Positions 15,291 through 52,498 of a DNA stretch of 64,000 nucleotides are shown here, piece by piece (position 1 is the first letter of the stretch; the number at the start of each line of letters is the position of its first letter). The DNA comes from Squalus acanthias (taxonomy: Eukaryota). The notes below the pieces were generated by a model. It searched no databases. It was given only the letters and a program-made list of their open reading frames with translations, and was not told the DNA's origin. The DNA is taken from NCBI GenBank assembly GCA_030390025.1, contig JASTWF010000070.1, positions 496,001 to 560,000 on the forward strand. Reading direction: 5' to 3'. The translations under genes and the position numbers were made by a program.

Positions 15291-16010
15291 GTCTATTTTC
15301 TATCAACTTTAATCATCTTAAGCTCCTTAGTTTGAGATAGATTAGGTGTTTGTTGAGAGTCTCTGTGGCTTTACATTGCAAGTTAAATTACAGTTTCCAC
15401 CTGCTGTGGATTCTTTCGTAAATCTGATAGAACCCATTCGAGTTCGCGTCTCTTTCCCGCCTTCTTTTTTGATGACATTTTCAATGCAGCAAAATCCAAC
15501 GATGTGTCGAGTCTGGTCACGCGGGCCGCCCCGAGCCTGGAAAACATCTTAAAACAGGGAAATATATTGATATTTAAATCATGTTTATATCAGCTTACTC
15601 GTTCTCCATAAGACACGGGACCGGCTTTCTGTTTATAGGCAACAGTAGACGGATATTACTCATAAATAATCTCAAATTAGAAACCAACAAGATTATTTTT
15701 AAAATCAAAGTATCCATTCAGACAACTGCACAGTTTGATTGGTTGACACGTCGAACCAATCCAATCAGCCGTTTCGTCATGCGCCATCTGCTAGGAGAAG
15801 TGTTTCCAAGGTCAAGGGGCATAGTTCCGAATAATGGCCCCAGGTCATTGTTTTAATAGAATGGAAACCGCTGCTATGGCGCCCCTACCGGCAAGCGAAG
15901 AGTCTGCCTGGGACCTCAATGAAAAAGCTGTTTGCCTGTTAGGAGGGCCAAGCTCGCTGCTTAGTGGTGTAGACAGATAGCAGCAGCGTCTCGTATAGCA
16001 CGTAGAAACG

Positions 16011-16555
16011 NNNNNNNNNNNNNNNNNNNNNNNNNNNNNNNNNNNNNNNNNNNNNNNNNNNNNNNNNNNNNNNNNNNNNNNNNNNNNNNNNNNNNNNNNN
16101 NNNNNNNNNNNNNNNNNNNNNNNNNNNNNNNNNNNNNNNNNNNNNNNNNNNNNNATGACAAGGGCAGCAGGCGCATGGAAACACCACCACCTCCAAGTTC
16201 CCCTCCAAGTCACACATCATCCTGACTTGGAAATATATCGGCCGTTCCTTCATTGTCGTTGGGTAAAAATCCTGGAACTCCCTCCCAAACAGCACCGTGG
16301 GAGCACCTTCACCACACGGGACAGCCGCGGTTCAAGAAGGCGGCTCACCACCACCTTCTCAAGGGCAACTGAGGATGGACAATAAATGCTGGCCTTGCCA
16401 GTGATGCCCACATCCCNNNNNNNNNNNNNNNNNNNNNNNNNNNNNNNNNNNNNNNNNNNNNNNNNNNNNNNNNNNNNNNNNNNNNNNNNNNNNNNNNNNN
16501 NNNNNNNNNNNNNNNNNNNNNNNNNNNNNNNNNNNNNNNNNNNNNNNNNNNNNNN
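16011..16555. other. Assembly gaps (16011-16154 and 16417-16555)
   Basis: N runs. Confidence 1.
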
Positions 16556-17849
16556 GACTCACCCACATATAAACACAGACAGACACACGCACATAAATGC
16601 ATTCTTAAGCCTTGTATATCGACTTAGCATGGAAGCCATTTAGCAACATAGTTTGAGTTATCTTCACAATTATCCAGGAATATCGTCGCATTTCTGCATC
16701 TCTATAATAATTGCTGTGGCCAAAGTATTAAAATCTGTTACCGCACCAGGGCGGGAGTGGGGGGCGACCTCGACTCCCTGTAGAAATAATAAATCTGGTT
16801 ATCTGAAATACAAACTAAAACTGCTGGAATGACACTGCGGATGATTATCTGTCGAGGGCATTATGCCCGAAACATTAACTGATCATTCCTGTCAGTAGAT
16901 ACCACTGCGGTTGATGGATTCGCTCTATTTCCATTCCGAGCGATAATGGGGATTGGATGGAAATTAAGCTAACGTAGACCGCGGTCTGCTCTCTGTTCTC
17001 GGGGCGAAACATTCCTTTGAAGCTAAAATTGTACGCGAACAAAATATGAAACAGGCATTAATTCTGGTAAATCCTTGGTCACGTGCCATAAATATTGAGA
17101 ATAGAATTGTGGGATGGTCTTTGAATCAATCTTAAAAGAACGTGGAAAATATAAAAAGTATACCATTGAAATCGGAGTTGGGGGTTGACTGGTTTTGGCA
17201 CAGTGTTAAATACAGTGTGACTCTTACTGAGGAAAAATGATTCAGTTACTTACTTTTCCTTGTGGGTCTCTTGACTCGTTCTTCTGAAACAATTAACTGT
17301 AATTCGCATTGAAAGATGCGAGAAGGGAATCACATTAAACAAACATTTATTAAAATAGTCCCGATCAACATCAAATCTCTTCTGATCTGCCGCTGTTATG
17401 GAAATGAGGATCAATACTCGAACCAGGATCACCGTGACAGTTATTGCAATGGGAAGGGTCGGAATGCACCACCCTACAGAGAGAAACACTTTGAAAATGC
17501 TGCTGGGTCAAGACATTATTTTCTGGGGTTCTCTGATGAGAAACTTGACCCAGTCACAATGGAGGAGCATTAAACCCGGGGTGTGAAAGGAGAAACCAGC
17601 CATTGCGATTAATATTGGACGAGTAAAAACACATAATGGAATAAACTGCGCTATGTTTGGTGTTTGGGACAAGTTGAAAGACAGGACTCAACAAATATAA
17701 TTCAGCCAGGAGATGCACTTACAGCGGAGAGTTGCTATCAACAGTATATTACGCGTAAACTGCTAGGCTTTATGTAAACACCCTGACAAAATTGTGTTTC
17801 AAAAATTAACAAATGAAGTAATTAGCATTAACATGTCAGACTGAGACGT

Positions 17850-21106: not shown

Positions 21107-21161
21107 ATGTTCAAGGCAGCTTTTTCCCTGATCCTCATTGTCCACGTGTTCTCTTCTTACG
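21107..21161 (+). CDS. Gene A leader exon
   Basis: MFKAAFSLILIVHVFSSY then G|GTGAGT. Hydrophobic, phase 1. Confidence 0.85.
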
Positions 21162-21796: not shown

Positions 21797-22129
21797 TTGC
21801 AGAATCCCAGCCCATCCTGTCTCGGAGCCCCTTCACAGTGACAGCCGGAGTCGGCCAGTCGGTTAAATTGGAATGTCACCAGATTTATGAAGTGTATTTG
21901 GTGAATAGTTATTTCTGGTACAAGCAGCATGTGGGTGAAGCACCGAGACTAATCGATATCCCATCATGTAATCGGACCGATTGCAAGTTTACTTCTAAAA
22001 AAGGACACACCAAATAAAAACTGATCCTGGAAATCCGCAATGTGCAGGTGGCTGACACCGGCTCCTATTACTGTGCTGATAGGGATGGCAATGCACCGCT
22101 CTGGAATGGATCCACACTGCTGGTTGGAG
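21797..22129 (+). pseudogene. Gene A VJ-type V exon with an internal stop
   Basis: VAESQPILSRSPFTVTAGVGQSVKLECHQIYEVYLVNSYFWYKQHVGEAPRLIDIPSCNRTDCKFTSKKGHTK*KLILEIRNVQVADTGSYYCADRDGNAPLWNGSTLLVG|GTAAGA. V-set Cys, WYKQ and DxGxYYC are present. Confidence 0.88.
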
Positions 22130-22219: not shown

Positions 22220-22540
22220 ACAGTTCCACACCCAAGACGGCTGTGCTGGTGTTTGCTCCGCCGGGGGAGCCGCATTTAAGGGGCACCGTCCCCTTGGTGT
22301 GTTTGGTCACTGGCATCTCCTCGAACCAGATTGCTATTTACTGGAACGTTACCGGACAGTTGGCCGAGGGACCGAGCGATTCCGGTACACTGAACCCGGA
22401 CGGGACCTACAGCATCAGAAGCCATGTGATGGTCTCGGGGGAAGCCTGGAGAAGCGGCGGGGTCTGCACCTGTATTGTTGAGCTGGGTTCCAATGACAAA
22501 TCTTGGGCCAAGAGCGTGTCGCGCCCCAAAACAGTGGCAG
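22220..22540 (+). CDS. Gene A C1-set Ig exon
   Basis: DSSTPKTAVLVFAPP...VPLVCLVTGISSNQIAIYWNVTG...DGTYSIRSHVMVSGEAWRSGGVCTCIVELG...; 321 nt, phase 1-1, open. Confidence 0.9.
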
Positions 22541-24237: not shown

Positions 24238-24339
24238 GGTGGTGCATTCTGACCCTTCCCGTTGCAATAATTGTCTCGTTGAACCTGGTTCTGGTATTGA
24301 TCCTCATTTTCATTTGGAATCGTAAAAGCGGCAGATCAG
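24238..24339 (+). CDS. Gene A transmembrane exon
   Basis: tctgtag| then GWCILTLPVAIIVSLNLVLVLILIFIWNRKSGRS and G|GTGAGA. 102 nt, phase 1-1, hydrophobic span followed by basic residues. Confidence 0.88.
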
Positions 24340-24437
24340 GTGAGAATTTACGTTTATCAGGAATATTTTAATAAATGTTTGTTTAATGTGACTCCCTTCT
24401 CGAAGATTTCAATACTAATTACAGTTAACTGTTTCAG

Positions 24438-24468
24438 AAGAACGAGTCAAAATACCCCACAAGAAAAG
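24438..24468 (+). CDS. Gene A cytoplasmic micro-exon (31 nt, frameshifted relative to a 30-nt paralog)
   Basis: gtttcag|AAGAACGAG...AAAAG|GTGAGT. The paralogous exon at 17254-17283 (-) is 30 nt with intact splice sites. Confidence 0.65.
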
Positions 24469-25133
24469 GTGAGTAATTGATCCATTTACAAACTTCCTCA
24501 GTAATAGTCTCACTCTAATTAATACTGTGTCAGAACCAGTCAACCCCAACTCCAATTTCAATATTTTCCACGTTCTTTTAAGATTGATTCAAAGTCCATT
24601 CCACAATTCTGTTCTCGATATTTATGGCACGTGACCAAGGACTTACAAGAAGTAATGCTTGTTTCATATTTTTGTTCGCATACAGTTTTAGTTTGAGAGA
24701 GAGAACGATAAGAACAGGAAGAAATGAGCGACACTCAGGTGAGTTGGACTGAAATGTTGCTGCAGGTAGAACATCAATTGTGGGATATTTCAAAGATCAA
24801 TCAGTGCATTTCCCGCCATGCAAAAGTCCTGCCATCGTGCTCATGTCTGCCGGACCTACAGAAAGCCTAATTATTGGTTATTAATGCTGACAATTATGTA
24901 TCAGATCCACAATAGAGATAAGGCACCGGGGGTTTATCATCCATGTCCATCCATTGGCGTATTGGGATACCATTGGCATATTGGGGTATCATTAGCATAT
25001 TGCTGGACCATTGGCATATTGGTGGACCATGGGAATATTAGGGGGCCATTGGCGCATGGTGCCTCTATAATTAATTATACATTAGCCAGAATTGATAATA
25101 TTTAAATTCATATTCTTAACTGTTAATACACAG

Positions 25134-25183
25134 ATGACACCCGTCAAATGGAGGCGAAGCGGACACATCAGGGTGCAATACAT
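25134..25183 (+). CDS. Gene A cytoplasmic exon
   Basis: acacag|, DDTRQMEAKRTHQGAIH, |GTAAGT. Phase 1 to 0, bridging the TM and last exons. Confidence 0.7.
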
Positions 25184-25984
25184 GTAAGTAAGTTCATTGA
25201 ACCTGTTGCAATAATATACAGGAACTTGATGATTTCTGGGATGGGTCCAAAATGCGGGATATTTCACGCAGTTGGCATTGAGCAGGTCATTGTGCAGATC
25301 ATCTTAATTTGCAGCGAATCCCACTAGTTGCTCCAACTGGAAACAGAAAATACACCGCAGCCCTCTTCCCATCTGATAATAGGAAGGATGGGTTAATGTT
25401 CCGGGTAGAATGCCTTCACCAGACTGTACTGCGGATTTTCAGCAGTTTCTGTTTCTATTTCAGATTTCCAGCTTTTTGTTATTTTCTATTATTTTTTTCT
25501 CTACATTGAGTCCATGTCCACTCACCCCACAACCCCCAGCTCACCCCCACCCCCGCTCCCCGCACACCCCCACCCCGCCAATCCGGCGGAGATACTGTTT
25601 TTAATACATTAGCACAGTAATTATTATGAAGATTCAGAAATAAGACGACACTCAGGATAGTTTCACAGTTAAATCAAAATATGTTTCTATGGTAAGTCGG
25701 CAAAGAAGGAAACAGTTTGGATAGAAGGTGATTGTGTGTGTGTGCGTATGAGAGTGCGTGTGAGTGTGTAACTGTGAGTGGGTGTGTGTGCGTGTGACTG
25801 TGTGTGTACATGTGAGAGTGCATGAGTGTGGGAGTGTCTGTGAGTGTGAGCGTGTAAGTGAGTGTGCGTGCGTAAGATTGTCAACCTGGCTCATTGGGTA
25901 GCACTCTCGCCTTTGGGTCCGTAGGTCATGGGTTCAAGTCCCACTCCAAGAGACTTGCGCAAAAAAATCTAGGTTGATGCTCCC

Positions 25985-26290
25985 AGTGCGGAACTGAGAG
26001 AGTGCCGCACTGTCGGAGGGGCAGTACTTAGGGAGCGCCGCACTGTCGGAGGGGCAGTACTGAGGGAGCGCCGCACTGTCGGAGGGGCAGTACTGAGGGA
26101 GCACTGCACTGTTGGAGGGGCAGTACTGAGGGAGCGCCGCACTGTCGGAGGGGCAGTACTGAGGGAGCGCCGCACTGTCGGAGGGGCAGTACTGAGGGAG
26201 CGCCGCACTGTCGGAGGGGCGGTACTGAGGGAGCGCCGCACTGTTGGAGGGGCAGTACTGAGGGAGCGCTGCACTGTCGCAGGTGCCGTC
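25985..26290 (+). repeat. 33-bp minisatellite (~9 units) inside a SINE
   Basis: Unit gagggagcgccgcactgtcggaggggcagtact; produces spurious 11-aa repeat ORFs. Confidence 0.9.
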
Positions 26291-26994
26291 TTTCAGATGA
26301 GATGTTCAATTGAGGCCGGAATGTGGACGGAAAAGAACTCACGCCACTATCTCGAAGAAGAGCAGAGAGTTCTCCCTGGTGTCCTGGGCCATATTTATCC
26401 CTCAACCAACATCACTAAAAAACAGATGATCTGGTCATTATCCCATGGCTGTTTGAGGGAGCTTGCTGTGCGCAGTTTGGCTGCCACGTGTCCTACAGTG
26501 ACTACACTTCAAAAGTATGTATTTGGCTGTAAAGCGCTTTGGGAGGTGCTAAGGTCATGAAAGGTGCTGTAGAAATGAAAGTATTTCTTTCTTTATGATG
26601 TGTGATGGCGTGTGTGTGTGATACTGTATGGGTATGATTGATTGTGTGTGTGTCATTGAGTGTGAGTGTATTTGAGTGTGTTTAATTGAGTGTGTGTGTG
26701 TGATTCTGTGTGGGTATGATTGATTGTGTGTGTGTCTATGAGTGTGAGTGTATTTGAGTGTGTGTATCTGTGTGTAATTGAATGTGTGTGTGTGATTCTG
26801 CCTGGGCATGATTGATTGTGTGTGTGTGTGTGTGTGTGTGATTGAGTGACTGTGTGTGTAAATTTGTCTGGGTGTGATTGATTGTGTATGTGTGTGTGTG
26901 TGTGATTGAGTGTCTGTGTGTATGTGATTATGTCTGGGTATGAATGATTGTGTGTGTGTGTGTGAGTGATTGAGTGTCTGTGTGTGTGTTAGTA

Positions 26995-29900
26995 AGAACA
27001 CAAGAACATAAGAAATAGGAGCAGGAGTAGGCCAATTGGCCCCTCGAGCCTGCTCCGCCATTCAATAAGATCATGGCTGATCTGATCCCAACCGCCAATC
27101 TACTATCACAGAACCATCTCCTGAACCCAACAGAATTGGACACACGAAATAGGAGCAGGATCAGGCTACACGGCCCCTGGGCCCGCCACGCCACCCACAG
27201 GGCCATGACCGATCCGAACCCAGACTCATGTCCAAATTCCTACCCGCTCCCCGTAAACCTTAATTCCCTTTACTTCGAGGAAACTGTCTATTTCTGTTTT
27301 AAATTTATGTAATGATGTAGCTTCTTCAGCTTTTTGGGGCAGCATATTCCATGGACCTACCACCCTCTGAGTGAAGTAGTTCCTTCTCATCTCAGTTTTG
27401 AAAGAGCAGCCCCTTATTCTAAGACTATGCCCCCTAGTTCTAGTTTCACCCATCATCGGGAACATCCTCCCCGCATCCACCCGATCCAACACCTTCACAA
27501 TCTTATATGTTTCAATAAGATCGCCTCTCATTCTTCTGAACTCCAATGAGTAGAGTCCCAATCTACCCAAACTCTCCTCATATGTCCATCCCCTCATCCC
27601 CGGGATTAACCGAGTCAACATTCTTTGTACTGACTCGAGAGCAAGTATGTCTTTTCTTAAGTATGGACACCAAAACTGTATGCAGTATTCCAGGTGCGGT
27701 CTAACCAATACCCTGTACAACTGAAGCAATACCTCTCTATTTTTATATTCTATCCCCCTAGCAATGAAAGCCAACATTCCATTGGCCTTCTTGATCACTT
27801 GCTGCACCTGCATACTAACCTTTTGAGTTTCGTGCACCAGGACCCCCAGATCCCTTTGTACTTCAGTACTTTCCAGTTTCTTGCCATTAAGATAATAACT
27901 TGCTCTATTATTTTTCCTGCCAAAGTGCATAACCTCACACTTTCCAGTATTGTATTCCATCTGCCAAATCTCTGCCCACTTACTTAGCCTGTCTATGTCC
28001 CCTTGCAGATTTTTTATGTCCTCCTCACTCACTACTTTCCCTCCCATCTTTGTATCATCTGCAAACTTTGATATGTTACACTCGGTCCCCTCCTCCAAAT
28101 CGTTAATATAGATTGTAAAGAGTTGGGGACCCAGCACTGACCCCTGCGGAACACCACTAGTTACTGATTGCCAGTCTGAGAATGAACCATTTATCCCAAC
28201 TCGCTGCCTTCTGTTAGATAGCTAATCCTCTATCCATGCCAGAATATTACCCCCAATCCCGTGATTTTTTATCTTAAGCAATAATCTTTTGTGTGGCACC
28301 TTGTCAAATGCCCTTTGGAAGTCTAAATACACCACATCCACTGGTTCCCCTTTATCCACCCTGTATGTTACTTCCTCAAAGAACTCCAGCAAATTTGTCA
28401 AACATGACTTCCCCTTCATAAAACCATGCTGACTTTGTCCTATTAAATTATGATTATCCAAATGTCCCGTTACTGTCTCCTTAATAATGGACTCCAAAAT
28501 TTTACCTACCACAGATGTTAGGCTAACTGGTCTATAGTTTCCAGCCTTCTGTCTACTGCCCTTTTTAAATAAGGGTGTTACATTAGCAGTTTTCCAGTCT
28601 GCTGGGATCTTTGCTGAGTCCAGGGAGTTTTGGAAAATTATTACCAATGCATCCACAATCCCTACCGCCACTTCCCTCAAGACCCTAGGATGTAAGCCAT
28701 CAGGTCCAGGTGATTTATCCGCCTTGAGTCCCATTATTTTACCGAGTACCACTTCCTTAGTGATTTTGATCGTGTTTAGCTCCTCCCCCCTTATAGCCCC
28801 CTGTTTGTCCAGTGTTGGGATATTCTTAGTGTCATCTACTGTAAAGACTGATACAAAATATCCATTCAGTGTATTCGCCATCTCCATATTTCCCACCATT
28901 AATTTCCCGGTCTCATCCTCTAGACACCCTTTTTCTTTTTATATAACTATAAAAACTCTTACTATCTGTTTTTATATTTTTTGCTAATTTACTTTCATAA
29001 TCTATCTTCCCTTTCTTAATCAATCTTTTTGTTATTTTTTGCTGTCTTTTAAAGTTTTCCCAATCCTCTATCCTCCCACTAGATTCGGCTACCTTCTAGA
29101 CCCTTGTTTTTAGTCGAATACTATCCTTAATTTATTTACTTAGACACAGATGACTGTCTTTTCTTTTACACCCTTTTCTTCTCAGTGGAATATATATTTT
29201 TTGGAAGTTGTAATATAACTCCTTCAATGTACACCACTGATCATGTATCGTCTTACCCTTTAATCTATTTTCCCAATCCACTCTACTCAATACCGCTCGC
29301 ATACCTTCTTAGTCTCCTTTATTCAAGCATAGCACGCTTGTTTGAGATCCAACCTTCTCACCCTCTAATTGAATATGGAATTCAACCATGTTATGGTCAC
29401 TCATTCCAATGGGATCCTTTACTAGGACATTTTTTATTAATCCTGTCTCGTTACATAGGACCAGATCTAAGGTTGCTTGCCCCCTGGTCGCTTCAGTTAC
29501 ATTCTGCTCAAGAAACCCATCCTAATACACTCAATTAACTCATCCTCAAGGCAGCCCTGCCCAATTTGATTTGTCCAATTAATATGATAGTTAAAATCCC
29601 CCATAATTAAAGATGTTCCCTTATTACAAGCCTCAACTATTTCCTGATTGATACTCCGTCCAACAGAGTTGCAACTGTTCGGAGGCCTATAGACTACGCC
29701 CACTAGTGTTTTTTCCCCTTATTATTCCTTATCACCACCCAAACTGTTTCATTATCCTGATCTTTTGACCCAATATCATTTCTCTGTATTACAGTGATTC
29801 GTTCCTTTATTAACATAGCCACCCCACCTCCCCTTCCTTCCTGCCTGTCCTTCCTGATCGCTAAATAACCTGCTATGTTTAAGTCCCAGGCATTGTCACC

Positions 29901-30380
29901 CTGCAGCCATGTTTCCGTAATGGCCACAAGATCATACCCATATGTAATCATTTGTGCCATTAACTCGTCTATTTTGTTACGAATGCTACGTGCATTCAGA
30001 CAGAGAACTTTCAAATATGTTTTGTGACACTTAGTTCCTGCTTTTGCCATTTTTATTACTTTACCTTTTACTCCATATCTTCTGCCCCTTCCTGGCACAC
30101 TCTGGTTTTTAATTTCTCCACTGCTACCTAAGTCTATGACCTTCTCTGTTGTCATTTTTTATTATTTGCTCTCTAGGAACGTCTCCCCCACTAGTTAGTT
30201 TAAAGCCCTCTCTACAGCCCTAGTTATCTGATCCGCCAGGACTCTAGTCCCATCACTGGGCAAGTGAAGCCCGTCCCAATGGAACAGCTCCATCCTGCCC
30301 CAGTACTGGTGCCAGTGTCCCAGGAAGCAAAACCCATTTCTCCCACACCAGTCTTTGAGCCACTCATTTAACTCTCTATT
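26995..30380 (-). mobile_element. Long CR1 LINE (ORF1 C-terminus, endonuclease, RT) within a TG-rich tract in the last intron of gene A
   Basis: EN start LKVLCLNARSIRNK...AITETWL; GDFN; RT motifs NYRPVSLTS and KFADDTK; upstream LFHWDGLHL (esterase-like ORF1 end). Stops and frameshifts present; TG repeats at 26600-26990 and 30385-30550. Confidence 0.93.
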
Positions 30381-30399
30381 CTGTCTGGGTGTGATTGAT

Positions 30400-30445
<46 letters not shown>

Positions 30446-30889
30446 AGAGTGTTATTCTGTCTGGGTATTATTGATTGTGTGTGTGTGAGTGATTGAGTGT
30501 ATGTGTGTGTGTGATTCTGTCTGGGTATGATTGATTGTGTGTGAGTGATTGTGATCTATGTAACCTTGTAGATGGCGCATGGCAAAACATGACCGTCTGA
30601 TTGGATTGTTTTTGATGTGTCTATCCTATCAAACAGATAGACTCATCATCCCAGTTTCCTGATTAAATGTTGGTGATTTCTGGGTTCAGCTGCTTTAAGA
30701 GTTGTGCTCCTCTGTGTGTTAAAACATTAATTCAGACAGTTCTTGTGTGGACATATTAAGCAAATTCTCAAATTTAGAAAGCGGGTGATGGAAGCAGATT
30801 CAATGCTTAATTTCAAAAGCGAATTGGATAAATACTCGAAGGATAAAAATGTGCAAGTCTGTGGGGAAAAGCAGGGAGAGTGGGACTAA

Positions 30890-31820
30890 TTGGATAGAGT
30901 GGGCAGTAAGTTGGCAGATGAAGTATACTGTAGGGAAATGTGAGGTTATTCACTTTGGTAGGAAGAATCGAAAAACAGTATATTTTTTAAATGGTGAGAA
31001 ACTTTTAAATGTTTGTGTTGAGAGAGAATTGGATGTCCTCGTGCAAGAAACACAGAAAGCTAGCATGCAGGTATAGCATGTAATAAGGAAGGCAAATGGC
31101 ATGTTGTTTTTACTGCAAGGGAGTAGGAGTATAAGAGTAAGGAGGTCTTGCTACAATTATACAGGGCCTTCGTGAGACAACACCTGGAGTACTGTGCACA
31201 GTTTTGGTCTCCTTATCTTAGGAAAGATGTACTTGCCTTGGAGGCGGTGCAACAAAGGTTAACTAGATTGATTCCTGGGATGAGAGGGCTGTCTTATGAT
31301 GAGAGATTGTGTAGATTGGGCCTATTCTCTCTGGAGTTTAGAAGAAAGAGAGGTGATCTCATTGAAACATACAAGATACTGAAGGGGGTTGAAAGGGTAG
31401 ATGCTGAGAAGCTGTTTCCCCTGGCTGGCATGTCTAGAACTAGGGGACATAATCTCAGGATAAGGGGTAGGCCATTTAAGACGAAGATTAGGAGGAATTT
31501 CTTCACTCAGAGGGTTGAGAATCTTTGGAATTCTCTGCCCCAGAGGCCTGTGGATGCTCAGTCTTTGAGTATATTCAAGACTGAGATAGATAGATTTTTG
31601 GACTCTAGGGGAATCAAGGAATATGGCGATCGAGTAGGAAAGAGGAGTTGAAGTCGATGATCAGCCATGATCTTATTGAATGGCGGAGCAGGCTCGAGGG
31701 GCCGTATGGCATACTCCTGCTCCTAATTCCTATGTTCTTATGATCTTTCAAAGAGCCAGCACAGGCACGATGGACCGAATGGCCTGCTTCTGTGCTGCAT
31801 CGTTCTATGATTCCATGAAA
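30890..31820 (+). mobile_element. CR1 LINE 3' fragment
   Basis: LEYCAQFWSPYLRKD...RNFFTQRV. Confidence 0.88.
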
Positions 31821-31899
31821 CGCGACTGCAGGACGAGATAGTTTGAACTACCTTTAAATATCTTGAAATGTCAATGTTTAATATATTTTCCTGTCTCAG

Positions 31900-31986
31900 G
31901 GCGGCACTCGAGACCGGATACTTTACGCCTCTCTGGAATTTGCTGCCTCGGAAAAGTCATCAAAAAAGAAGGCGGGTCGCGGATGA
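31900..31986 (+). CDS. Gene A terminal exon with ITIM (ILYASL)
   Basis: ttttcctgtctcag| then GGTRDRILYASLEFAASEKSSKKKAGRG*. Phase 0; AATAAA near 32321. A decayed copy lies at ~15400-15545. Confidence 0.8.
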   Translation, partial: GGTRDRILYASLEFAASEKSSKKKAGRG

Positions 31987-34900
31987 GAACCCGGAGGGTT
32001 TCTATCGGATGGATGCGGGAGGAGATCAGGACTTACAAAAGAACCCACAGCCGGCGGGAAAAAGAATGGAGCCACGGAGACTCCCGTCAAACATCCAAAC
32101 TATCTCCCTGCACTCGCCAGAGTTTGCAAAGACTCTTTCTATTCAATGTAAACGAACGTGCTTTGAGTATTGTAAAGATATTCCATTGCTCAAGTGTAAT
32201 TCAAGTGTGAGACCAACATTAAGAGCAGGGACTTCTCGGTTTGGTCTTTCTCTGAACCTTTCCTGCTCATCCTGCAGCTCCAGTTAGTAACAAATTTTTT
32301 TTTCCAAATGCTTGTGTATAAATAAAATAAATTATTCTTCGAATGTAACGATGCACGAGAGGTTCCTATCGATCAATACTTCACTTATAATAAAATGTGA
32401 TCAGGATAAAACTTCAATGACTATTGAACTGACAATATCGGTCCTGAATTGAGATACTGTTAGTGGCGGTATCCTCTGTCTGAGAAGCCAGAGGCTTAAT
32501 CATTTACAGACTAAGAGCACCACAGGAGAGAATCGCGGGCAGAAATGCGGGAATTGTGCCTGGTTCCATTTTACCTTTGGGGTAGTGTGTTTTGCTGTGT
32601 GTAGTAATGTCAAAACTACATGTCAGAGACAGATGGTGAGTGTAGCGTGGATTGGGAGGAATGGGTGACTTTGGACCTGTGGTTTCCTAAAGCTCTCCAC
32701 CACTGGAGGTTTGCTCACGTCAGATCTGGGTCTCTTGTAGATTCGTGGATATGGATGGATTGCCATGACAACCGCATTATCATTGTATCATGCGATTACC
32801 AGGATGGTAGAAGGTATGGCAACTGGCATGTTGGCCTTTATTGCACGGGGGTTGGAGTATAAGAGTAAGGAAGGACCTTGGCCCTTTCTCGTCTAGCAAT
32901 TCCTATGTTCAAGATCCCAGGTTTGCACAATTTTGGGAGAAGATATTCAACCAGAGACAGGATTGCACCATAGGTGGTTATTTTGCTTTATCCATCAGGG
33001 TCAGATCAGTCTAAGTATTCCCCTTCTGATTACTTTGGAATCAGCATGTACAACCGAATGAGATTCAGGAGCAACAAAAACAGTTCCTGACAAAGACCCT
33101 TTCAAATCAATCTCTCAGAAACTGTCCAATAAATTACATGAGGATTTGAATAAATTCCTAACAACCGTTTTCTAATTAATGATAATTTATATTGTAGGGT
33201 TCTATAAAACTGATCTAAGTTCACCAGGACGATACTGGGGCAAAAATGGTAACATTCTAAGGGCAGGTTGCATAGACAAGCCTTATATTCTCCAGAGTTG
33301 AGAAGATTAAGGGGTGATCTATTTGAGGTGTTTAAGATGATTAAAGGATTCGATGGGGTAGATAGAGAGAAACTATTTCCTCTGGTGGGGGGAGTCCAGA
33401 ACAAGGGGCCGTCACCTTAAAAGTAGAGCCAGGCCATTCAGGGGTGATGTCAGGAAGCACTTCTTCACACAAAGGGTGGTGGAAATCTGGAATTCTCTCT
33501 CCATAAAAGGTATAGAGGCTGGGGGTCAATTGAAATTTTCAAAACTGAGGTTGATAGATTTTTGCTGGGCAAGGTTATTAAGCGTTATGCAACCAAGGCG
33601 GGTAGATAGAGTTAACCTACAGGTCAGCTTAAAGGCCTCTGTCAGGTCACCACTCTGTCTTCTCTTTTTAAGAGAAATGTGACTCTGCCTGTTCAATCTT
33701 TCCTGATGTGTATAACGCCTTAGTTCTGTATCATCCTTGTACAGCTTTTTTGCACCTTCTCCAGTGCCTCTATATCCTTTTTATAATATGGAGACCAGAA
33801 ATGTGCGCAGTGCTCCAAGTGTGGTCTAACCAAGGTTCAATACAAGTTCAACACAACTTCGCTGCTTTTCAATTCTATCCCTCCAGAAATTAACCCCAGT
33901 GCTTCTTTTGCTTGTTTTAATGGCCTTATTAACCTGTGTCGCTAATTTTAGTGATTTGTGTACCTGCACCCCAGATCCTCTACCCCATTTGAAAACTTAT
34001 TTTCTAAGAACTAACGGATACTAATTGTGGGCAAAAGCCACCATAAATTTGCTGAAGAAATCACTTAACTGCATTATTAAAAAAGAGCAGATGGATTTAA
34101 AATAATTTACTTTCAGCGGTAAATGTGACAGAGTTCTCTCCCAGATCAGAAACAGAGAAAGCTCGGGGTCCATTTACACAAGAACATAAGAAATAGGAGC
34201 AGGAGTCGGCCAAGCGGCCCTTCCAGCCGGCTTCGCCATTCAATATGATCATGGCTGATCTTCTACCTCATCTCCACTTTCCTGCACTATCCCCATATCC
34301 CTTGATTCCCTAGAGTACAAAAATCTATCGCTCTCTGTCTTGAATATACTCAACGACTGAGCCTCCACAACCCTCTGGGGTAGAGAATTCCAAAGATTCA
34401 TCACCCTCTGAGTGAAGAAGTTTCTCCTCATCCCAGTCCTAAATGGCCGACCCCTTATTCTGAGACTGTGACTCCTGGTTCTAGATTCCCCAGCCAGGGG
34501 AAACATGCTCCCTGCATCTAACCTGTCAAGCCCTGCAAGAATTTTGTATGTTTCAATGAGATCACCTCTCATTCTTCTAAACTCCAGCTTTAATATCAAT
34601 GCAGCCTAAATCCGGAGGCAGTGCCAAAGCTGCCCAGTCGGTCCTGAGCCCCACTTTTGAACGGCACACATTTACTCTATAAATGTGCATTGCAAAATGC
34701 CATTAAAGGAACACTGAGCGCATCTGGACTGAAGGATCAAAGGGCTGGAATCACAAACACAATGCTAGAGTTTGAAAACCTGTTTTATTGTATTTGTAAC
34801 TTGAACACTGATGCATTGTAAAGATTATTTGAATTATATCGTGCTCGCATACAAAGACGCGAAATAAATCTATAAACGTCAATACAAGAGAGGAGAAACA

Positions 34901-35506
34901 TGTCGAGATTGAACCGAAACTGCAGGCGGTGTGTCATCTTAAGAATAGCAGACGATGCGTAAGAGAGAATTTAAATATGTTTAGAATTTCCTCTTTGGGA
35001 CAAATTTCCCATTTGCAAAATGCGCTTGAAATTGCGCCGGTTACGTTCGGCGTTAAGACTCTCCAGTAGGCGATATGCCGCTTCTGCATTGGTCAGTCTC
35101 TCTTCCGAATGAGGGTTAATTATTGATAAATGCGCATCAAGTCGATAAGAGAACGTGAGATCGCCGCAGTGAGACGTCAACGAAGATAGCAGTTGAACCC
35201 TTTAGCTGCACGCCACTGCTTCCAATAGTCGCATTTCTGCGGTGCTTTGGGACTTGAACCCGGCGTATCAAAGTCTCTCGGAAGGGTTCACACCTCAGGG
35301 CTCTACTGCGCCGGTTGTTCTTCTGAATGAGATTGCCAATTTCCTGTCAATGGATCCCAAAAGCACGCGGAAGCGGCACACAATTGTGCAACAGGAGGCT
35401 TGAATTGTTACTGAGCAGCGGGTCTAACTGATCCCACAATGAGAGCAAAGCAGAGGGAACTTTCCACAACAGGTCATATCCGGCAGGCGCTCGCTTTCTT
35501 TTCCCG

Positions 35507-35551
35507 TCAGAGGGTCGGGACCGCATTAAACGCCAGGTGGGCGTAAAGAGT
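35507..35551 (-). CDS. Gene B terminal exon with tyrosine motif TLYAHL
   Basis: ttttctctcatag| then TLYAHLAFNAVPTL*. Phase 0; parallels the LYASLEF of gene A. Confidence 0.75.
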   Translation of the reverse strand, partial: TLYAHLAFNAVPTL

Positions 35552-36289
35552 CTATGAGAGAAAACAGAAACCATTATCATGGCCCACATCATCATCATAG
35601 GAACAGAGGGACAGGAGGAGGCTATTCAGCCCATCGAGCCTGTTCCGCCATTCAGTCAGATCATGGCTGATCTGTATCTTAACTCCATCTACCCGCCTTG
35701 GTTGCCTACCCCTTAATCCCCTTACCCAACAAGAATCTATCAAAATTCTCTCAGTTTTGTAATTTCCAATTGACCCCCCCAGCCTCAGCAGCCTTTGGGG
35801 GGAGAGAGTTCCAGATTTCCACCGCCCTTTGTGTGAAGAAGTGTTTCCTCACATCACCCCTGAACGGCCTGGCTCTAATTTTAAGGTGATGCCGCCCTTG
35901 TTCTGGACTCCCCCCACCAGAGGAAATTGTTTCTCTCTGTCTACCCCATCGAATCTTTAATCATCTTAAACACCACAATTAGATCACCGCTTAATATTCT
36001 ATACTTGAGGGAATACAGCCCGAGTCTGTGCAACCTGTCCTCGTAATTTAACCCTTTTAGTCCCGGGTATCATTCTGGTGAATCATTATTCTGCAATTTC
36101 AAATATCCAGATCTATATTTTTTTAATCTCCGTTCGCAGTTTTACATAAAAGGAAAACAGTGCTATTCTGTAGTTCTCACTATGCAATGTTTTATAGACT
36201 AGTTTACTAGGAATCTTAAACATTGGTTTAAAATAAGTGCAAGGTATCAACATTTAAAGATCGCATGGATGAACTACAGAATTTGTTCA

Positions 36290-38365
36290 TACCTGTCTGG
36301 CATAAAAATAAAACAAAACAGGTGGTGCACCGTGGCTAACAAGGGAAATTAGGGATAGCATAAGATCCAAGGAGAGGACATATAAATTGGCCAGAAAAAG
36401 CAGCAAAACTGAGGATTGGGAGCAGTTTAGGATTCAGCAAAGGAGGACAAAAGGATTAATTAAGAGGGGGAAAATAGAGTATGAGAGTAAGCTTTCTGGG
36501 AACATAAAAACTGACTGTAAAAGCTTCTATAGAAATGTGAAGAGAAAAAGATTGGTGAAGTCAAGCGTAGGTCCCTTGCAGTCAGAATCAGGGAAATTTA
36601 TAATGGGGAACAAAGAAATGGCTGACCAATTAAATACATACTTTGGTTCTGTCTTCACAAAGAAGGACACAAATAACCTCCCAGTGATGTCGGGGAACAT
36701 AGGATCTAATGAGAGGGAGGAACTGAATGAAATCAGTATTTGTAGGGAAATAGTGTTAGGGAAATTGACGGGATTAAAGGCCGATAAATCCCCAGGGCCT
36801 GATAATCTACATTCTAGGGTACTTCGGGAAGTGGCCCAAGAAATAGTAGATGCATTGCTGGTCATCTTCCAAAATTCTATAGACTCTGGCACAGTTCCCA
36901 TGGATTGGAGGGTAGCTAATGTAACCCCACTATTTAAAAAAGGTGGCAGAGAGAAACCGTGGAATGGTGAGCCTGACATCAGTAGTGGGGAAAATGCTAG
37001 CGTCCATTATAAAAGATGTAATAGCAGAGCACTTGGAAAACAGTGACAGGATCGGACAAATCAATATGGATTTACAAACGGTAAATTGTGCTTGGCTAAT
37101 CTACTGGAATTTTTTGAGGATGTAACTGGTAGGATAGATAAGGGAGAACCAGTGGATGTGGTGTATTTGGACTTTCAGAAGGCTTTCGATAACGTCCCGC
37201 ATAAGAGATTAGCGTGTAAAGTTAAAGCACATGGAATTGGGGGTAAGGTACTGATTGGATAGAGAACTGGTTGGCAGACAGGAAGCAAAGAGTTGGAATA
37301 AACGGGTCTTTTTCCGAGTGGCAGGCAGTGACTAGTGGGGTACCGCAGGGATCGGTGCTAGGACCCCAGCTATTCACAATATATATGAATGATCTAGACG
37401 AGGCAACTAGATGTAATATCTCCAAGTTTGCAGACGACACAAAGCTGGGTGGACGTGTGTGCTGTGAGGAGGATGCCGAGAAACTCCAGTATGATTTGGA
37501 CAGGTTGGGTGATTGGGCAGATGCATGGCAGATGCAGTATAATGTGGATAAATTCGAGGTTATCAACTTGTGGCAAAAACAGGAAGGCAGATTATTATCT
37601 GAACGGCAATAGATTGGGAGAAGGGGAAGTGCAATGAGACCTGCGTGTCCTTGTGCACCAGTCGCTGAAGGTAAGCATGAAGGTGCAGCAGGCAGTTCAG
37701 AAGGCAAATGGTATGTTGGCCTTCATCGCGAGAGGATTCGAGTACAGGAGCAAGGATGTCTTGCTGCAGTTGTACAGGGCCTTGGTGAGAGTACACCTTG
37801 AGTACTGTGTGCAGTTTTGGTCGCCGTATCTGAGAAAGGATGTTCTTGCCATGGAGGGAGTGCAGCGACGATTCACCAGACTGATCCCTGGGATGGCAGG
37901 AATGACGTATGAAGAGAGATTGGGTCGATTGGGCTTCTATTCGCTGGAGTTTAGAAGAATGAGAGGGGACCTCATTGAAACTTATAAAATTCTACCAGGA
38001 CTAGACAGACTAGATGCAGGAAGGATGTTCCCGATGGCGTGGGAGCCCAGAACCAAGGGTCACAGTCGAAAGATAAGGGGTAAGCCATTTAGGACAGAGA
38101 TGAGGAGGAATTTCTTCACCCAGAGAGTGGTGAACCTGTGGAATTCTCTATCACAAAAGGCGGTTGAGGCCAATTCATAAAATATATTCAAGAAGGAGTT
38201 AGATATATTTCTTAAGGCTAAAGGGATCGAGGGATATGGGGAGAAAGCAGGGACAGGGTACTGAATTTGGATGATCAGCCATGATCTCATTGAATGGTGG
38301 AGCAGGCTCGAGGGGCCGAATGGCCTACTCCTGCTCCTATCTTCTATGTTTCTATGTTTCTATGT
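36290..38365 (+). mobile_element. 5'-truncated CR1 LINE in the last intron of gene B
   Basis: RT ORF fragments (SGVPQGSVLGP, KFADDTKLGG) and a (tttctatg)n tail. Confidence 0.92.
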
Positions 38366-38394
38366 TAAGCAAAAACAATTCTTTTCATATCTAC

Positions 38395-38453
38395 CTCCTT
38401 GTCTTGTGCACGTGATCTCGAATCGGTCAATTTCTGATCGCTGTTCGTGTTCC
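38395..38453 (-). CDS. Gene B cytoplasmic exon
   Basis: tctctttatatcag|, GNTNSDQKLTDSRSRAQDKE, |GTAGAT. Phase 1 to 0. Confidence 0.75.
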
Positions 38454-38596
38454 CTGATATAAAGAGAAACTTAATCTAAGTCTAAATGCACACATTTCAC
38501 ACTGAACCGGCCCACTAACATGTAATGAGCCAATGAAACAATAAATGGATTGATTGGGAGCGCCGTGGAGTTGGAGCGTCTCCCAACAACCGCTAC

Positions 38597-38713
38597 CTGA
38601 CCGCCGGTTCCTGCAGCTCCTTCCCGCGGCGACAATAACCATCAGCAGAAGGAGAAGCGCCGCCGCCGAAGTCCCGTAAAGCAGTAATCTGCAGTTGGTT
38701 TGTAGCGGGGACA
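38597..38713 (-). CDS. Gene B stalk and transmembrane exon
   Basis: tttctttcttcag| then VSPLQTNCRLLLYGTSAAALLLLLMVIVAAGRSCRNRRS and G|GTAGCG. 117 nt, phase 1-1. Confidence 0.85.
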
Positions 38714-41180: not shown

Positions 41181-41482
41181 CTCTCTGAGATGAGACACTT
41201 TCACTGATCAGATCCCCACTGGAGTTGATTGGAACGGCGCAAGTACAGACAGCGCCGCTGCTCCAAGTTTCCGCCGAGACGCTGATGTGATTCCTTACAC
41301 TGTAGGTCCCGCCGGGTCTATTGTCCCGGAATCGCTCGGTTCCTCGGTAATCTGTCCGGAAACATTCCAGCGAACGGGAAGGGAATCGAGAGACATGCTT
41401 TTCACCAAACACATCAATGGGACCCTTTCCAGCGAGGGAATTTCATCCGGCGGCGGAGCTAAGAGAAAGATTTCCGGAGACC
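41181..41482 (-). pseudogene. Gene B C1 exon with a frameshift
   Basis: GSPEIFLLAPPPDEIPSLERVPLMCLVKSMSLDSLPVRWNVSGQITEEPSDSGTIDP, then -1 bp at 41311/41312, then GTYSVRNHISVSAETWSSGAVCTCAVPINSSGDLISESVSSQR. 302 nt (303 expected); homologous to gene A C1. Confidence 0.88.
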
Positions 41483-41574: not shown

Positions 41575-41913
41575 CTGCAATGAGCAATTTCGTGCCGTTT
41601 CCGAATATCAAGGGCATTCCGCTATATTTCTTAGCTGCGCAGTAATAGACCCCCGAATCATTCCTCTGGACATCTTTCACAATCAGAGAGTAAATACTGG
41701 ATTCGTTGTTAACTTCTCCGGAAAATCTTCCTTCGGGAGGCATGTACTTACCCACGCTGTAAACTAGCTGTAGATGCTCTCGGTGCTGCTGCTTATACCA
41801 GTGTACAGCTTCTACTGCTAACCAACCCGTGTGACAATCCATCTTAAAGATACTTCCAACGGAGACAGTCAGAAACGGCGGATTCTGGCGGAAAACTTCC
41901 TGAGAGACAATAA
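41575..41913 (-). CDS. Gene B germline VJ exon (intact)
   Basis: VIVSQEVFRQNPPFLTVSVGSIFKMDCHTGWLAVEAVHWYKQ...RFSGEVNNESSIYSLIVKDVQRNDSGVYYCAAKKYSGMPLIFGNGTKLLIA, then G|GTAAGA. 339 nt. Confidence 0.93.
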
Positions 41914-42548: not shown

Positions 42549-42591
42549 CTGGAAAGAGATGGAACAGCGCGCAGGGAGTTAAGAAGCTCAT
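42549..42591 (-). CDS. Gene B leader exon
   Basis: MSFLTPCALFHLFP then G|GTCAGT, phase 1. Confidence 0.75.
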
Positions 42592-48027: not shown

Positions 48028-48356
48028 TCAGTCGGAACACGAGGAGGCGCTGATGGTCTTGAGAAGAGGCGACCTCAGGGAGCCGTGGCTGACGCTGCAA
48101 GAATAGCTGGAGCCCTTGTTCCAGGCGGCGGCGGGGACTCTCAGGTAACTGCTCAGGCTGTAGGTTTGATCGCTGTCCGGGGACACGGCGCCTGTCGTCA
48201 CCCCGCTGTCTGTCTCATGGTCATCCACGCTCCAACGGAGCCGCACCAAGCCCGGCTTAAAGCGACTCACCAGGCAGGACAGAGTGGCCGATCCCGAGCC
48301 GATTTCTTCCGAGGAGGGAGGGAGGACAAGAACCGATGGGCTTCGATCCTCGCTGC
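48028..48356 (-). CDS. Ig light chain constant exon, cluster 2
   Basis: 329 nt, phase-1 acceptor cacag|GC, open. Nearly identical to the cluster 1 C exon. Confidence 0.95.
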
Positions 48357-48909
48357 CTGTGTGTGGGGGGGGAAGAAAATTCATTAGTTTATGGAATCCG
48401 TCAGCAGTGGGACGCTCTGATCTGAAATCAAAGACGACAAAGAACCCCGAACAACATTCACTTTAAAATAAATTACTGATTAATACAGGAGTTCCAATAA
48501 ATTCTTAAATCTTTAATTCCTCTGCTCCTCTGCCAATTCTTTTGCCGACATTCCAAAAGTGACTTGGTTCAAAAGTACTTCATTGGGTGTAAAGCGCTTT
48601 GGGACGTCCTGAGGTCGTGAAAGGAGCTGTAGAAATACAAGTCTTCCTTTAATCCTTTCTTTCTTTCTTTGTCACTTTCCTTCAACAGAAAATGCTGGAA
48701 ATACAGACCGGGTAAGTCAGCCTGTGAGAGGCGGAAAGATCAGTAACTGACCAGTTCAGGTGCAGGTTACACCCCCGGAACCGCACTACCCTGTCTGTTC
48801 CCGTTACAGACACTGACCGACCGGCCGTGTATTCCCAGCATTGTCTGTTTTTATTTGATTTCCTAAAATTGCAGTTTTTTCCTTTGTACTTGAACATAAT
48901 AAAGCGTTT

Positions 48910-50043
48910 TCTCAACCGAGGATTCCCCTCTACCGTGGTCGACACGGCCTTCGACCGTGTCCGTTCTATCTCCCGCACTTCTGCCCTCACCCCTGCCCCT
49001 CCCTCCCGGAACCACGATAGGGTTCCCCTTGTCCTCACCTTTCACCCCACAAGCCTCCACATTCAACGAATCATCCTCCACCATTTCCGCCACCTCCAGC
49101 GTGATCCCACCACCAAACACATTTTCCCCTCACCTCCCCTTTCAGCATTCCGTAGGGACCGCTCCCTCCGCGACACCCTGGTCCACTCCTCTACCACCCC
49201 CAGCACCCCTTCCCCTTCGCCCGGCACCTTCCCATGCACGCGCAGGAGATGCAACACATGCCCTTATACCTCCCCTCTTCCCACTGTCCAGGGCCCCAAA
49301 CACCCCTTCCAGGTGAAACAGCGATTTACTTGTACTTCCTACAATTTAGTATACTGTATTCGCTGCTCACGATGTGGACTCCTCTACATTGGGGAGACCA
49401 AACGCAGATTGGGTGACCGCTTTGCGGAACAGCTCCGTTCAGTCCGTAAGGGGGACCCCGAGCTCCCGGTGGCCTGTCACTTTAATTCACCGCTTCACTC
49501 CCACTCTGACCTCACCGTCCTCGGCCTATTACACTGTTCCACAGAAGCGCAGCGTAAGCTCGAGGAACAGCACCTCATCTTTCGTTTAGGCACGCTACAG
49601 CCCTCTGGACTCAATATCGAGTTCAACAATTTTAGATCATAACCTCAGCTCCAATCACATTTATATTTTATTTTTATTTGCCCCCCCCCCACCTTTTTTT
49701 TTCCTCCTAGAAGCTGGCAGCTGTCCTTCATTCTGCCAGTGGATTTCACACTTCATTCAGACTTAATCTGTCACATTAACACCACCTCTAGCCTTGCATA
49801 TCTCTTAATGTCTCTTAATGTCTCTTCATCTCCCCCTTTGTTCCTTTATCCCCTCCCCCTTTTCCCAGCTTTACCCTGGCCTTAAATCTATTTGATTTCC
49901 GGCTCTTCCCAGTTCTGATGAAAGGTCATCGACCTGAAACGTTAACTCTCTTTCTCTCTCCACGGATGCTGCCTGGTCTGCTGAGTTTTTCCAGCGTTTT
50001 CTGTTGTTATTTCGGATTTCCAGCATCCGCAGTATTTTGCTAT
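48910..50043 (+). mobile_element. Penelope-like retroelement (GIY-YIG C-terminus plus 3' UTR) in the J-C intron of cluster 2, with a 15-bp target-site duplication
   Basis: ORF contains CNTCPY...NLVYCIRCSRCGLLYIGETKRRLGDRFAE...GLNIEF. CATAATAAAGCGTTT occurs at 48895-48909 and 50044-50058; clusters 1 and 3 have a single copy of the site. Confidence 0.9.
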
Positions 50044-52498
50044 CATAATAAAGCGTTTGATTGTCTTAAAATGCGGTCGGTGTTAACTTTAAAGAGGGGA
50101 ATTCACGGAGCTGTGACCCGCTTTCCACCGAGAGTCCACATATGTTCTGATATCTCAAACTGATGCAGCCCTTTCAAAGAGCCGCCACAGGCACGATGGG
50201 CCGAATGGCCTCCTTCTGTGCTGTATCATTCCATAAGATTCCGGAAGGTATTTTTGGGATTCATATTATTTTAGAATTGCGAGTTAGAAACTGATCGGCT
50301 TTAAATGTTGCGGCGATAATGATTGAGCCGGGTCTGTTACCGGGTATTGAAGAGCTCACTGAATAAAGAGAGGACATTGTACAGGGGCTGGCAATTAATG
50401 TAGTGACTCTGCCTAGCAATATTGAAAATGCTTTACGTAGAATTACACAGAATATGCAGCACAGAAACAGACAATCGTCCCAACCAATCCATGTCGGCGT
50501 TTATGCTCCACTCCAGCCTCCTCCCATCCTTCCACATCTAACTCTATCAGCATATCCCTGTGTTCCCTTCTCCCTCATGTGCTTATCTAGCCTCCCCTTA
50601 AATCTATACTATTCGCCTCAATCAATCCGTGTTGTAGCCAATTCCACATTCTCACCACTCTCTGGGTAAAAAAATCCCTATTTGATTTCTTGGTGTTATC
50701 TTACATTGATGGCTCCTAGTTTTGATCTTCCGCACCAGTGGAAACATTCTCTTTGTGTCTACTCTATCAAAACGTTTCATAATTTTAAAGACCTGTATTC
50801 GGTCACCCTTCAGCCTTCTCTTTCCCCGGTTTGATGAAGGGTTTTCACTGTTCGATATTTCTAGTAAAAAGGGAACCAATGAATGTAAAAGATTCTCGCT
50901 ACAGAGGCAAGTAAGGATTCCTGCGGGTGAATTGATTTCTATGTCGGGATCACCTCAGTCTCGCTGATCCCAGAGCGATCCGTTCAACACTGGGCGGTAC
51001 CGGGACCCGACAGATCAACCCAGGAGAATCGGCGCTATCCCCGGGGGGACACTGGACAGGGAGAGTCTGCAGACACAGTCTGGGGGAGGGAGAGGGTCAG
51101 CAGCGAGAGAATCAGATGGAGAGAAAGTTCCCTTCAACAAGCATTACCCAGTCTCACTCACACACACAGGGCTGGTCAGTAATTGTCACTGCGCCTCTCC
51201 ATGGTAAAGCGCCGGTTCTGCTCTATAAACAGCGGGGAGATTGCAAATAATGATCTCAGACTGATTAAATATCGGAACAGGTAATTCAGAATTAAATCAG
51301 TCCCGTTAAACGAATACAATCCCGACTAGTCCCGGTGTTGCTGGCGACAGGGAGTCGATCCAACCGGTTGTGTGCTGGGACAGCGGGTCTCGGGAGGGTC
51401 CTCTCTCTCTCCCAACCCAGAGCCGGACACCCGACGGCTGCGATCAAGGGGACAATACACCACAGGAATAAAACCAGCAGCAACATTGAATGTTGTAAAT
51501 GAAGGTAATTGGTTTGGGATTCCCCCGGGGACTATCCCGCCGGCTACGGGCAATCTATTTCAAATCGGGCGGTGCCGACTCTTTGAAAGTGCTATCCAAT
51601 TAGTTCCACTCCACAGAGCCCTGCAATTTTCTCCCTTCAAGTCTCAGTGTAACATAGTGACATATTCAGTGTCCACTGTCAGAACTTCACAGTGCAGCTC
51701 ACAACTTTCCTCTCTCTCTCTCTCTCTTTATCTCTTGCTGCACCAGAATGATACCGGGGCTTAGAGGGTTAAATTGGGAGGACGGGTTGCATAAACTTGG
51801 CTTGTATTCCCTTGAGTTTAGAAGATTCAGGGGTGATCTGATCGAGGTGTTTAAAATGTGAAAAAGGATTCGATCGGGTAAACACAGAGAAACGATTTCC
51901 TCCGGTCGGGGAATCAAGAATCAGGGGAGATCAACTGAAAATTAGAGCCCGGCCATTTAGGAGGGAAGCACATTTTCACACAGGCTCGAGCGGCTGAATT
52001 ACCTCCTCCTGTTCCTCTGTCACTATTTTATCAATCAGTGCTCCTGTGAGGACATTCAGCCCATCGTGCTTGTGCCGGCTCTTTGAGTAGAGCTATACAA
52101 TTATTCCCACTCTCCTGCTCTTTCCACGCAGCCCTGCATTTATCCTTTTCATGTATTTATCCAATTCCCTTTTGAAAGTTACTATTGAATCTGCTTTCAC
52201 CGCCCTTTCAGGCAGCGCATTCCAGATCACAGCAACTCGCTGCGTAAAAAGAACAATTCTCCTCATCTGCCCGACTGAATGGAAGCAGGAAATGGTGTTA
52301 AACTTCATTTCAGCGCAGTATTATTCCCCGAGGCGCTTCAATAATTCCAATTCTGATCAGTTTAACATTTTCGGGGTATAAATAGATCCAACATCAAAAT
52401 TCACAGCATCGAGATTTCACTGGCGCCCGGGAATGAAAACGACTGTAAATTAATAATAATTGAAACAATGTGAATGACAGAATGAGAGAGTCACTTAC

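Follow-up and report, generated by a model that had tools for sequence, protein, structure and literature searches.

The locus considered here raises the question of whether two neighbouring, non-rearranging genes of antigen-receptor type encode the partner chains of a single surface receptor. It lies in a 64,000-nucleotide stretch of cartilaginous-fish DNA from the spiny dogfish, Squalus acanthias (the window; GenBank assembly GCA_030390025.1, contig JASTWF010000070.1), which corresponds to C3553:496001-560000, where C3553 is the contig carrying it. A six-frame scan of the window revealed two genes with V and C1 domains, A on the forward and B on the reverse strand, arranged tail-to-tail and flanked by germline-joined immunoglobulin (Ig) light-chain genes. 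A preliminary description of the same DNA had proposed that A and B form a disulphide-linked dimer that does not use CD3. The reading that we consider fairly probable is that intact A and B chains pair in the manner of light and heavy chains, are locked by a juxtamembrane disulphide, and reach the surface without CD3, signalling by their own tails.

Each gene consists of a leader exon, an exon with V and J already joined (VJ), a single C1 exon and a membrane exon, followed by four tail exons in A and two in B (Table 1). Exon ends are AG/GT with consistent phases, and both models agree exon by exon, including the tails, with annotated proteins of other sharks. V and J were found within one exon in all A and B copies, and no consensus recombination signal sequence (RSS) was found in the window. 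The two genes are 35% identical. Their tails contain Tyr motifs, ILYASL in A (of the immunoreceptor tyrosine-based inhibitory motif, or ITIM, type) and TLYAHL in B (TxYxxL, of the switch motif, or ITSM, type). A segment at 35346-35423, the first guess for a B tail exon, was replaced by the two exons that match homologs. The C'-C'' region of the A V domain (21803-22129, +) contains an additional Cys pair, and the J segment reads LxNG, not FGxG.

The proposed dimer depends on a Cys located just outside the membrane in both chains (GWC in A, TNC in B), and both residues are where they were claimed to be. The membrane exons, whose first bases are 24238 in A and 38713 in B, encode GWC-ILTLPVAIIVSLNLVLVLILIFIW-NRK and TNC-R-LLLYGTSAAALLLLLMVIVAAG-RSC, respectively; in B an Arg follows directly after the stalk Cys, at the outer edge of the span. 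The stalk Cys was present in 23/23 A and 23/23 B genomic copies with a readable membrane exon. Since these copies are young duplicates (pS, synonymous polymorphism, about 0.03-0.17), homologs in other species provide the stronger test, and conservation in orthologs had been set beforehand as the point on which the proposal could fall. Among homologs with a membrane span (rows lacking one were dropped beforehand), a Cys just ahead of the span was found in 15/15 A-type and 32/32 B-type proteins and in 69 of 71 additional B-type proteins from reptiles, birds and amphibians, or 101/103 B-type proteins overall; on this point the proposal stood.

The comparison with the connecting-peptide Cys of T-cell receptor (TCR) chains did not hold. 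When a B homolog was modelled, its stalk Cys took position two of the membrane helix, and about ten residues separated it from the last C1 strand. As modelled, this Cys, which the membrane exon encodes, stands where the membrane helix begins, and no connecting peptide of TCR type follows it. Immediately inside the membrane, 22/23 B copies (window B, 38597-38713, -) have another Cys, a possible palmitoylation site. Four annotated homolog isoforms (P0004, P0016, P0018 and P0024) do not include a membrane exon and, if real, would be secreted forms without the stalk Cys.

The V domains point to pairing of A with B. At position Trp+9, A-type sequences carry Pro in 19/25 homologs and 21/24 dogfish copies (the other three are frameshifted upstream), and B-type sequences carry Leu in 26/36 and 91/109 homologs and in 23/23 copies. 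In alignments the A Pro falls on the light-chain Pro and the B Leu on the heavy-chain Leu, residues that pack at the interface of light- and heavy-chain V domains (VL-VH). Judged from these alignments, the V domains of A and B carry complementary interface residues, light-type in one and heavy-type in the other.

Modelling of an A+B complex had been suggested as a check on the dimer. The prediction passed for the pairing that was modelled, A with B, using basking-shark proteins (P0021, residues 20-266, and P0003, residues 9-252), with a score of 0.61 versus 0.01 for the best of three controls. Model runs shared at least 81% of contacts, and the partner pLDDT (predicted local distance difference test) was at least 78. 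The pass mark is reached by 51/78 solved versus 2/108 mismatched microbial pairs and by 39/65 versus 2/126 eukaryotic pairs. In the model, Pro66 of A contacts J-Phe110 of B, the two C1 domains pair, and the stalk Cys residues of both chains (240 and 227) are found with the first membrane turns inside the confident interface. A fold search matched B to light chains, and PDB sequence and fold searches with A and B returned generic Ig matches only.

The foremost alternative, that A and B mainly form separate disulphide-linked homodimers or a mixture with a minor heterodimer, appears unlikely. In its favour, the chicken PRARP proteins, to which we return below, reportedly occur as monomers, homodimers or heterodimers; the C1 domains of A and B score best against CH3 and C-mu type domains, which self-pair; and no whole partner gene was found near 4/24 A and 4/24 B copies. 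In addition, an excerpt of PMC12227049 presents the shark proteins UrIg and UrIg2 as disulphide homodimers. Set against this are the A+B model and the Pro and Leu residues at Trp+9, which have been kept distinct across jawed-vertebrate evolution, as would fit unlike partners. A and B have also stayed together: their homologs in a ray (manta) have consecutive accessions, and in three other sharks the two types are on contigs of equal size. Judged by these records, adjacency is kept from rays to sharks, which also speaks for heterodimers.

Independence from CD3 had been argued from the absence of Lys and Arg from the membrane spans. This is correct for window A and window B, whose hydrophobic spans contain neither residue, and does not extend to the whole family. 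The core of the span has no Lys or Arg in 19/23 A copies, the window's included, and in 103/103 B-type homologs having a span. The remaining 4/23 A copies (C3553:1315686, 1199335, 1094998 and 867983, all +) have a Lys at Cys+9; two of them carry a Tyr to His change in the ITIM, one is without the last exons and one has an ITIM. An Arg at the same position, with no ITIM, was seen in 2/15 A-type homologs, from a sawshark and a horn shark. The B partners of the two His-type copies show a Tyr to Phe change in the tail and have V exons interrupted by an insertion, and an Arg early in the span occurs in four B copies, which are of a divergent subtype or broken. Because Lys or Arg is present in the span of these four copies and two homologs, mostly with loss of the ITIM, some members of the family probably signal through an adaptor. 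For DAP12 a single well-placed Lys in the membrane is enough, according to an excerpt of PMC7582382, and the charged, mostly ITIM-less A chains would thus resemble activating forms.

Two other membrane features that had been offered as dimer signals, a mid-membrane Asn in A and a GTSAAA face in B, are present in the window but were rejected as such for lack of conservation, and have no value as evidence. The Asn is found in 1/23 A copies, that of the window alone, and in 0/15 homologs at that position; the AAA run is found in 1/31 B homologs. A Gly at Cys+6 or +7 was present in 25/31 B homologs.

The charged variants allow a receptor that depends mainly on an adaptor (CD3, FcR-gamma or DAP12), the tails being secondary. 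This is quite improbable for the family at large, despite the Lys and Arg residues at Cys+9, the sufficiency of a single Lys for DAP12 and an Arg-bearing relic in the window, as the cores of most A spans and of all B-type homolog spans are uncharged, and Tyr-motif tails, absent from TCR chains, are carried by most members. The TCR, moreover, needs a unit of the one-Lys type three times (excerpt of PMC7582382). The relic, at 15422-17486 (-) upstream of A, has counterparts at seven similar places on C3553; in these inverted A-type 3' halves the span contains an Arg midway and the tail lacks the Tyr, and no V or C exon was seen accompanying them.

The C1 domain contains a further Cys, two residues ahead of the F-strand Cys (CxC), which co-occurs with the stalk Cys in nearly all shark and most turtle rows. 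In 12 rows (three alignments, 53 rows, three proteins counted twice) it is replaced and the stalk Cys is kept; as these rows lose the only other spare extracellular C1 Cys, the stalk Cys is left unpaired within its chain. An intrachain bond between the two, making the chains monomers or non-covalent dimers, is thus weakened as an explanation and very improbable, even if both Cys residues are present in most sharks and Ig C1 topology puts the start of CxC near the membrane-side end of the domain, not far from a stalk Cys about ten residues on, since the extra Cys takes a position normally held by a buried aromatic residue and both stalk Cys residues fall in the modelled A+B interface.

Proteins with the same layout were recovered from rays, sturgeon, bichir, lungfish, coelacanth, amphibians (including caecilian and newt), turtles and lizards by a profile search with shark B proteins and look-ups; a further search added alligators and birds. 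Two quick trees were built, the light-chain row of the first being out of frame and dropped. An A lineage comprised sharks, rays, lungfish and snapping turtle (support 94 and 91), a B lineage comprised sharks plus sturgeon to birds (support 90 and 77), and both were separate from light chains. The second domain of the bird proteins is shortened and altered, with both Cys residues kept in 7/8 rows, and no clear tail motif was present in the eight bird proteins aligned. No chicken protein was among the matches listed (120 of 178), and no record bears the PRARP name. B-type copies are numerous in turtles and alligators, and a third related lineage occurs in lungfish and coelacanth.

In the dogfish genome, A and B form an array. 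Copies were located with the A C1 exon as query; 150 of 426 candidates were scored and 858 kb examined, so that all counts are lower bounds. At least about two dozen copies of each type were found, mostly on the window contig and also on C24, C185 and C3349. Of 24 A and 24 B models built in the 858 kb, 12 and 10 are intact, respectively. A convergent B lies within 30 kb of 20/24 A copies, and 8 of the 20 pairs have no lesion in either gene; of these, the nearest (C3553:693771/718737) shows 97.4% identity to window A. Assembly or haplotype duplication may account for three pairs of A copies with 99.3-100% identity. Variation among intact copies is concentrated in loops resembling complementarity-determining regions (CDRs), CDR1- and CDR3-like in A and around CDR1 and CDR2 in B, a distribution consistent with a repertoire of binding sites encoded in the germline.

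Another B subtype, divergent from the first (about 66% DNA identity in V; ILYARL tail), was found at C24:48880900-48888300 (-), where it is intact, and at C3553:130260, 105169, 1068132 and 1340413. No RNA matches to the B V-C1 stretch were listed. When contigs of four related-species runs were compared with one B paralog, repeats dominated; a few pieces fell over exons, one of them unspliced across an intron, and no exon joints were among the matches listed, repeats swamping the signal. Light-chain genes alternate with A/B pairs along the contig; those that flank the window pair are at 48028-52852 (-), 2719-6120 (-) and 60886-61213 (-), and such genes recur along the contig. Judged by the sawfish neighbourhood, they are probably of the sigma-2 type: a sawfish B-type accession immediately precedes the one given as light chain sigma-2 in an excerpt of PMC12227049.

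Several observations weigh against pairing of A and B as proposed. Both window genes are broken as assembled and cannot make chains, with an in-frame stop in the VJ exon of A and a C1 exon in B that is one base short and shifts the frame (Table 1); these lesions may be true mutations or assembly errors. The model used proteins of another shark in the A+B combination only, with a tool whose benchmark was without antibodies and close relatives. Fab and TCR complexes are solved structures, and the pass may for this reason reflect likeness to them, not binding; the Cys-Cys pair is not among the 25 best contacts listed. The spare C1 Cys is kept in most sharks and turtles and could in principle take the stalk Cys. 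A single B clade of sharks and bony vertebrates is weakly supported (77) in the smaller tree. The ratio of nonsynonymous to synonymous polymorphism (pN/pS) among intact A copies is 1.1-1.6 across the V, C1 and membrane exons, so that purifying selection is not visible and part of the array may be drifting; for B the ratio is 0.5-0.9. Joint survival of A and B within pairs was not significant (8/4/2/6, p=0.085, computed after one B copy was re-scored as broken; copies are not independent).

The idea of a dimer signalling through its own tails is supported for the family by the Cys, the neighbouring genes, the V interfaces, the A+B model and the Tyr motifs, and fails for the two window copies, broken as assembled. 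The inference is sound, although it was made from two dead copies and relied in part on residues that are not conserved; the type of receptor that it concerns is probably known already.

The closest known counterpart is the PRARP pair described in chicken (Fu et al. 2019, J Immunol 202:1992), said to be non-rearranging VJ-joined genes with a V-C1 layout and ITIM- or ITSM-type tails. Their products reportedly form disulphide-linked homo- or heterodimers as well as monomers, the dimer being displayed on B cells and T cells; members are said to occur in bony fish, amphibians, reptiles and birds, the bird C1 being degenerate. A and B are likewise a linked pair of related genes with a single VJ exon, no consensus RSS in the window, a V-C1-membrane layout and ITIM/ITSM tails, and the family reached from B spans bony fish, amphibians, reptiles and birds. 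By anatomy and range, A and B are probably the shark members of this pair. The two differ in that the reported PRARP range does not include cartilaginous fish, that about 20 pairs are here amplified among light-chain genes, with charged-membrane variants, and that the bird proteins found here keep a recognisable though altered second domain.

A and B share with TCR alpha/beta and the Ig antigen-binding fragment (Fab) the V-C1 plan of the chains, a Cys not far past C1, the Pro/Leu asymmetry of the V interface and a pairing of V with V and of C1 with C1, which here is predicted. They differ from TCR chains in lacking rearrangement, a connecting peptide from Cys to membrane and a basic membrane triad, and in having tails of 40-75 residues with Tyr motifs. 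Assignment as TCR chains was rejected on the absence of a split V/J and of a consensus RSS in the window, the uncharged spans of the window copies and the long Tyr-motif tails; assignment as Ig light chains on the membrane exon, 27-30% identity to the neighbouring light chain and separate clades. CD8 alpha/beta chains are also of non-rearranging VJ type, linked by a stalk Cys near the membrane and free of CD3, features shared with A and B as observed or, for the linkage and CD3, predicted; CD8 differs in having a long stalk in place of C1 and a Cys motif that binds Lck in place of Tyr motifs. Cross-linking through the CD8 stalk Cys is noted in an excerpt of PMC7582382.

UrIg and UrIg2, as presented in an excerpt of PMC12227049, are also shark proteins with a single-exon VJ and C1, form disulphide-linked dimers and are encoded near antigen-receptor genes, but are homodimers with three or more C1 domains, UrIg being secreted from liver. 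The A C1 matches UrIg2 weakly (E 1.7e-14, summed), and identity with either was rejected on the single C1 exon of A and B versus three or more C1 domains. Paired receptors (SIRP, NITR, KIR and CD300) share with A and B a multigene birth-and-death cluster in which ITIM forms accompany charged-membrane, ITIM-less forms; they are mostly single-chain, in contrast to the two ancient chain types side by side here.

Table 1. Features of the A/B locus, in positions of the window
Feature	Position	Strand	Remarks
Broken inverted relic of A-type 3' half	15422..17486	-	Membrane exon 17486-17373 with mid-span Arg; tail exon; last exon without Tyr
Gene A leader exon	21107..21161	+	ATG, hydrophobic, GT donor, phase 1; 55 nt in 24/24 copies
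Gene A pre-joined VJ exon	21803..22129	+	In-frame TAA 22015-22017; Pro at Trp+9 (light-chain type)
Gene A C1 exon	22220..22540	+	Extra Cys two residues ahead of F-strand Cys (CxC)
Gene A membrane exon	24238..24339	+	AG/GT, phase 1; stalk Cys 24243-24245; Asn 24282-24284; span uncharged
Gene A tail exon 1	24438..24468	+	AG/GT, in frame; agrees with homolog tails
Gene A tail exon 2	24692..24738	+	Agrees with homolog tails
Gene A tail exon 3	25134..25183	+	Agrees with homolog tails
Gene A last coding exon	31900..31986	+	ITIM-type ILYASL 31918-31935; AATAAA at 32321 and 32389
Gene B last coding exon	35507..35551	-	ITSM-type TLYAHL 35551-35534; same motif terminates annotated homologs
Gene B tail exon 1	38395..38453	-	59 nt, phase 1 to 0; agrees with homolog tails
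Gene B membrane exon	38597..38713	-	AG/GT, phase 1; stalk Cys 38693-38691; GTSAAA 38675-38658; inner-side Cys
Gene B C1 exon	41181..41482	-	302 nt versus 303 in most copies; frameshift near 41305-41318
Gene B pre-joined VJ exon	41575..41913	-	FGNG; Leu at Trp+9 (heavy-chain type)
Gene B leader exon	42549..42591	-	Exon model
Neighbouring germline-joined Ig light-chain gene	48028..52852	-	VJ 52852-52499, C 48356-48028; open frame; groups with light chains, not A or B

In the mechanism that we propose, A and B would be an old pair of VJ-C1 receptor genes that do not rearrange. Their products would be co-expressed on one cell, probably a lymphocyte, would associate V-V and C1-C1, and would be bonded through the two juxtamembrane Cys residues. 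Ligand binding would lead to a signal through the ITIM of A and the TxYxxL motif of B, not through CD3; the ITIM would recruit SH2 phosphatases, and the TxYxxL motif phosphatase or SAP-type adaptors. The minority of A chains with a membrane Lys or Arg and no ITIM would be activating counterparts that act via a shared adaptor.

A tentative and rather speculative extension is that A and B represent a germline prototype of the two-chain antigen receptor. Specialisation into light-type and heavy-type VJ-C1 partners would predate the separation of V and J by the RAG transposon, and the partners would have been kept beside a light-chain locus throughout jawed-vertebrate history. In the inhibitory and activating expansion of sharks, one membrane residue of chain A would shift the dimer from signalling by its own tails to the use of an adaptor, a step that CD3-dependent TCRs would have completed.

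The element of surprise is limited, because the dimer itself has probably already been shown for the chicken pair; what is added here is the light/heavy interface asymmetry and the charged-membrane variants. No description of the shark pair was found in the literature searched, key papers and supplements lying outside it, which is not proof that the pair is unpublished. Interest in single-exon VJ genes comes from the search for relatives of the RAG-invaded gene, and the shark candidates considered here, UrIg and UrIg2, are homodimers (excerpt of PMC12227049). If the reading proposed here is true, the origins of two-chain pairing and of adaptor use could be put to the test in a heterodimeric VJ-C1 pair that is conserved, has light/heavy-type interfaces and is linked to light-chain genes.

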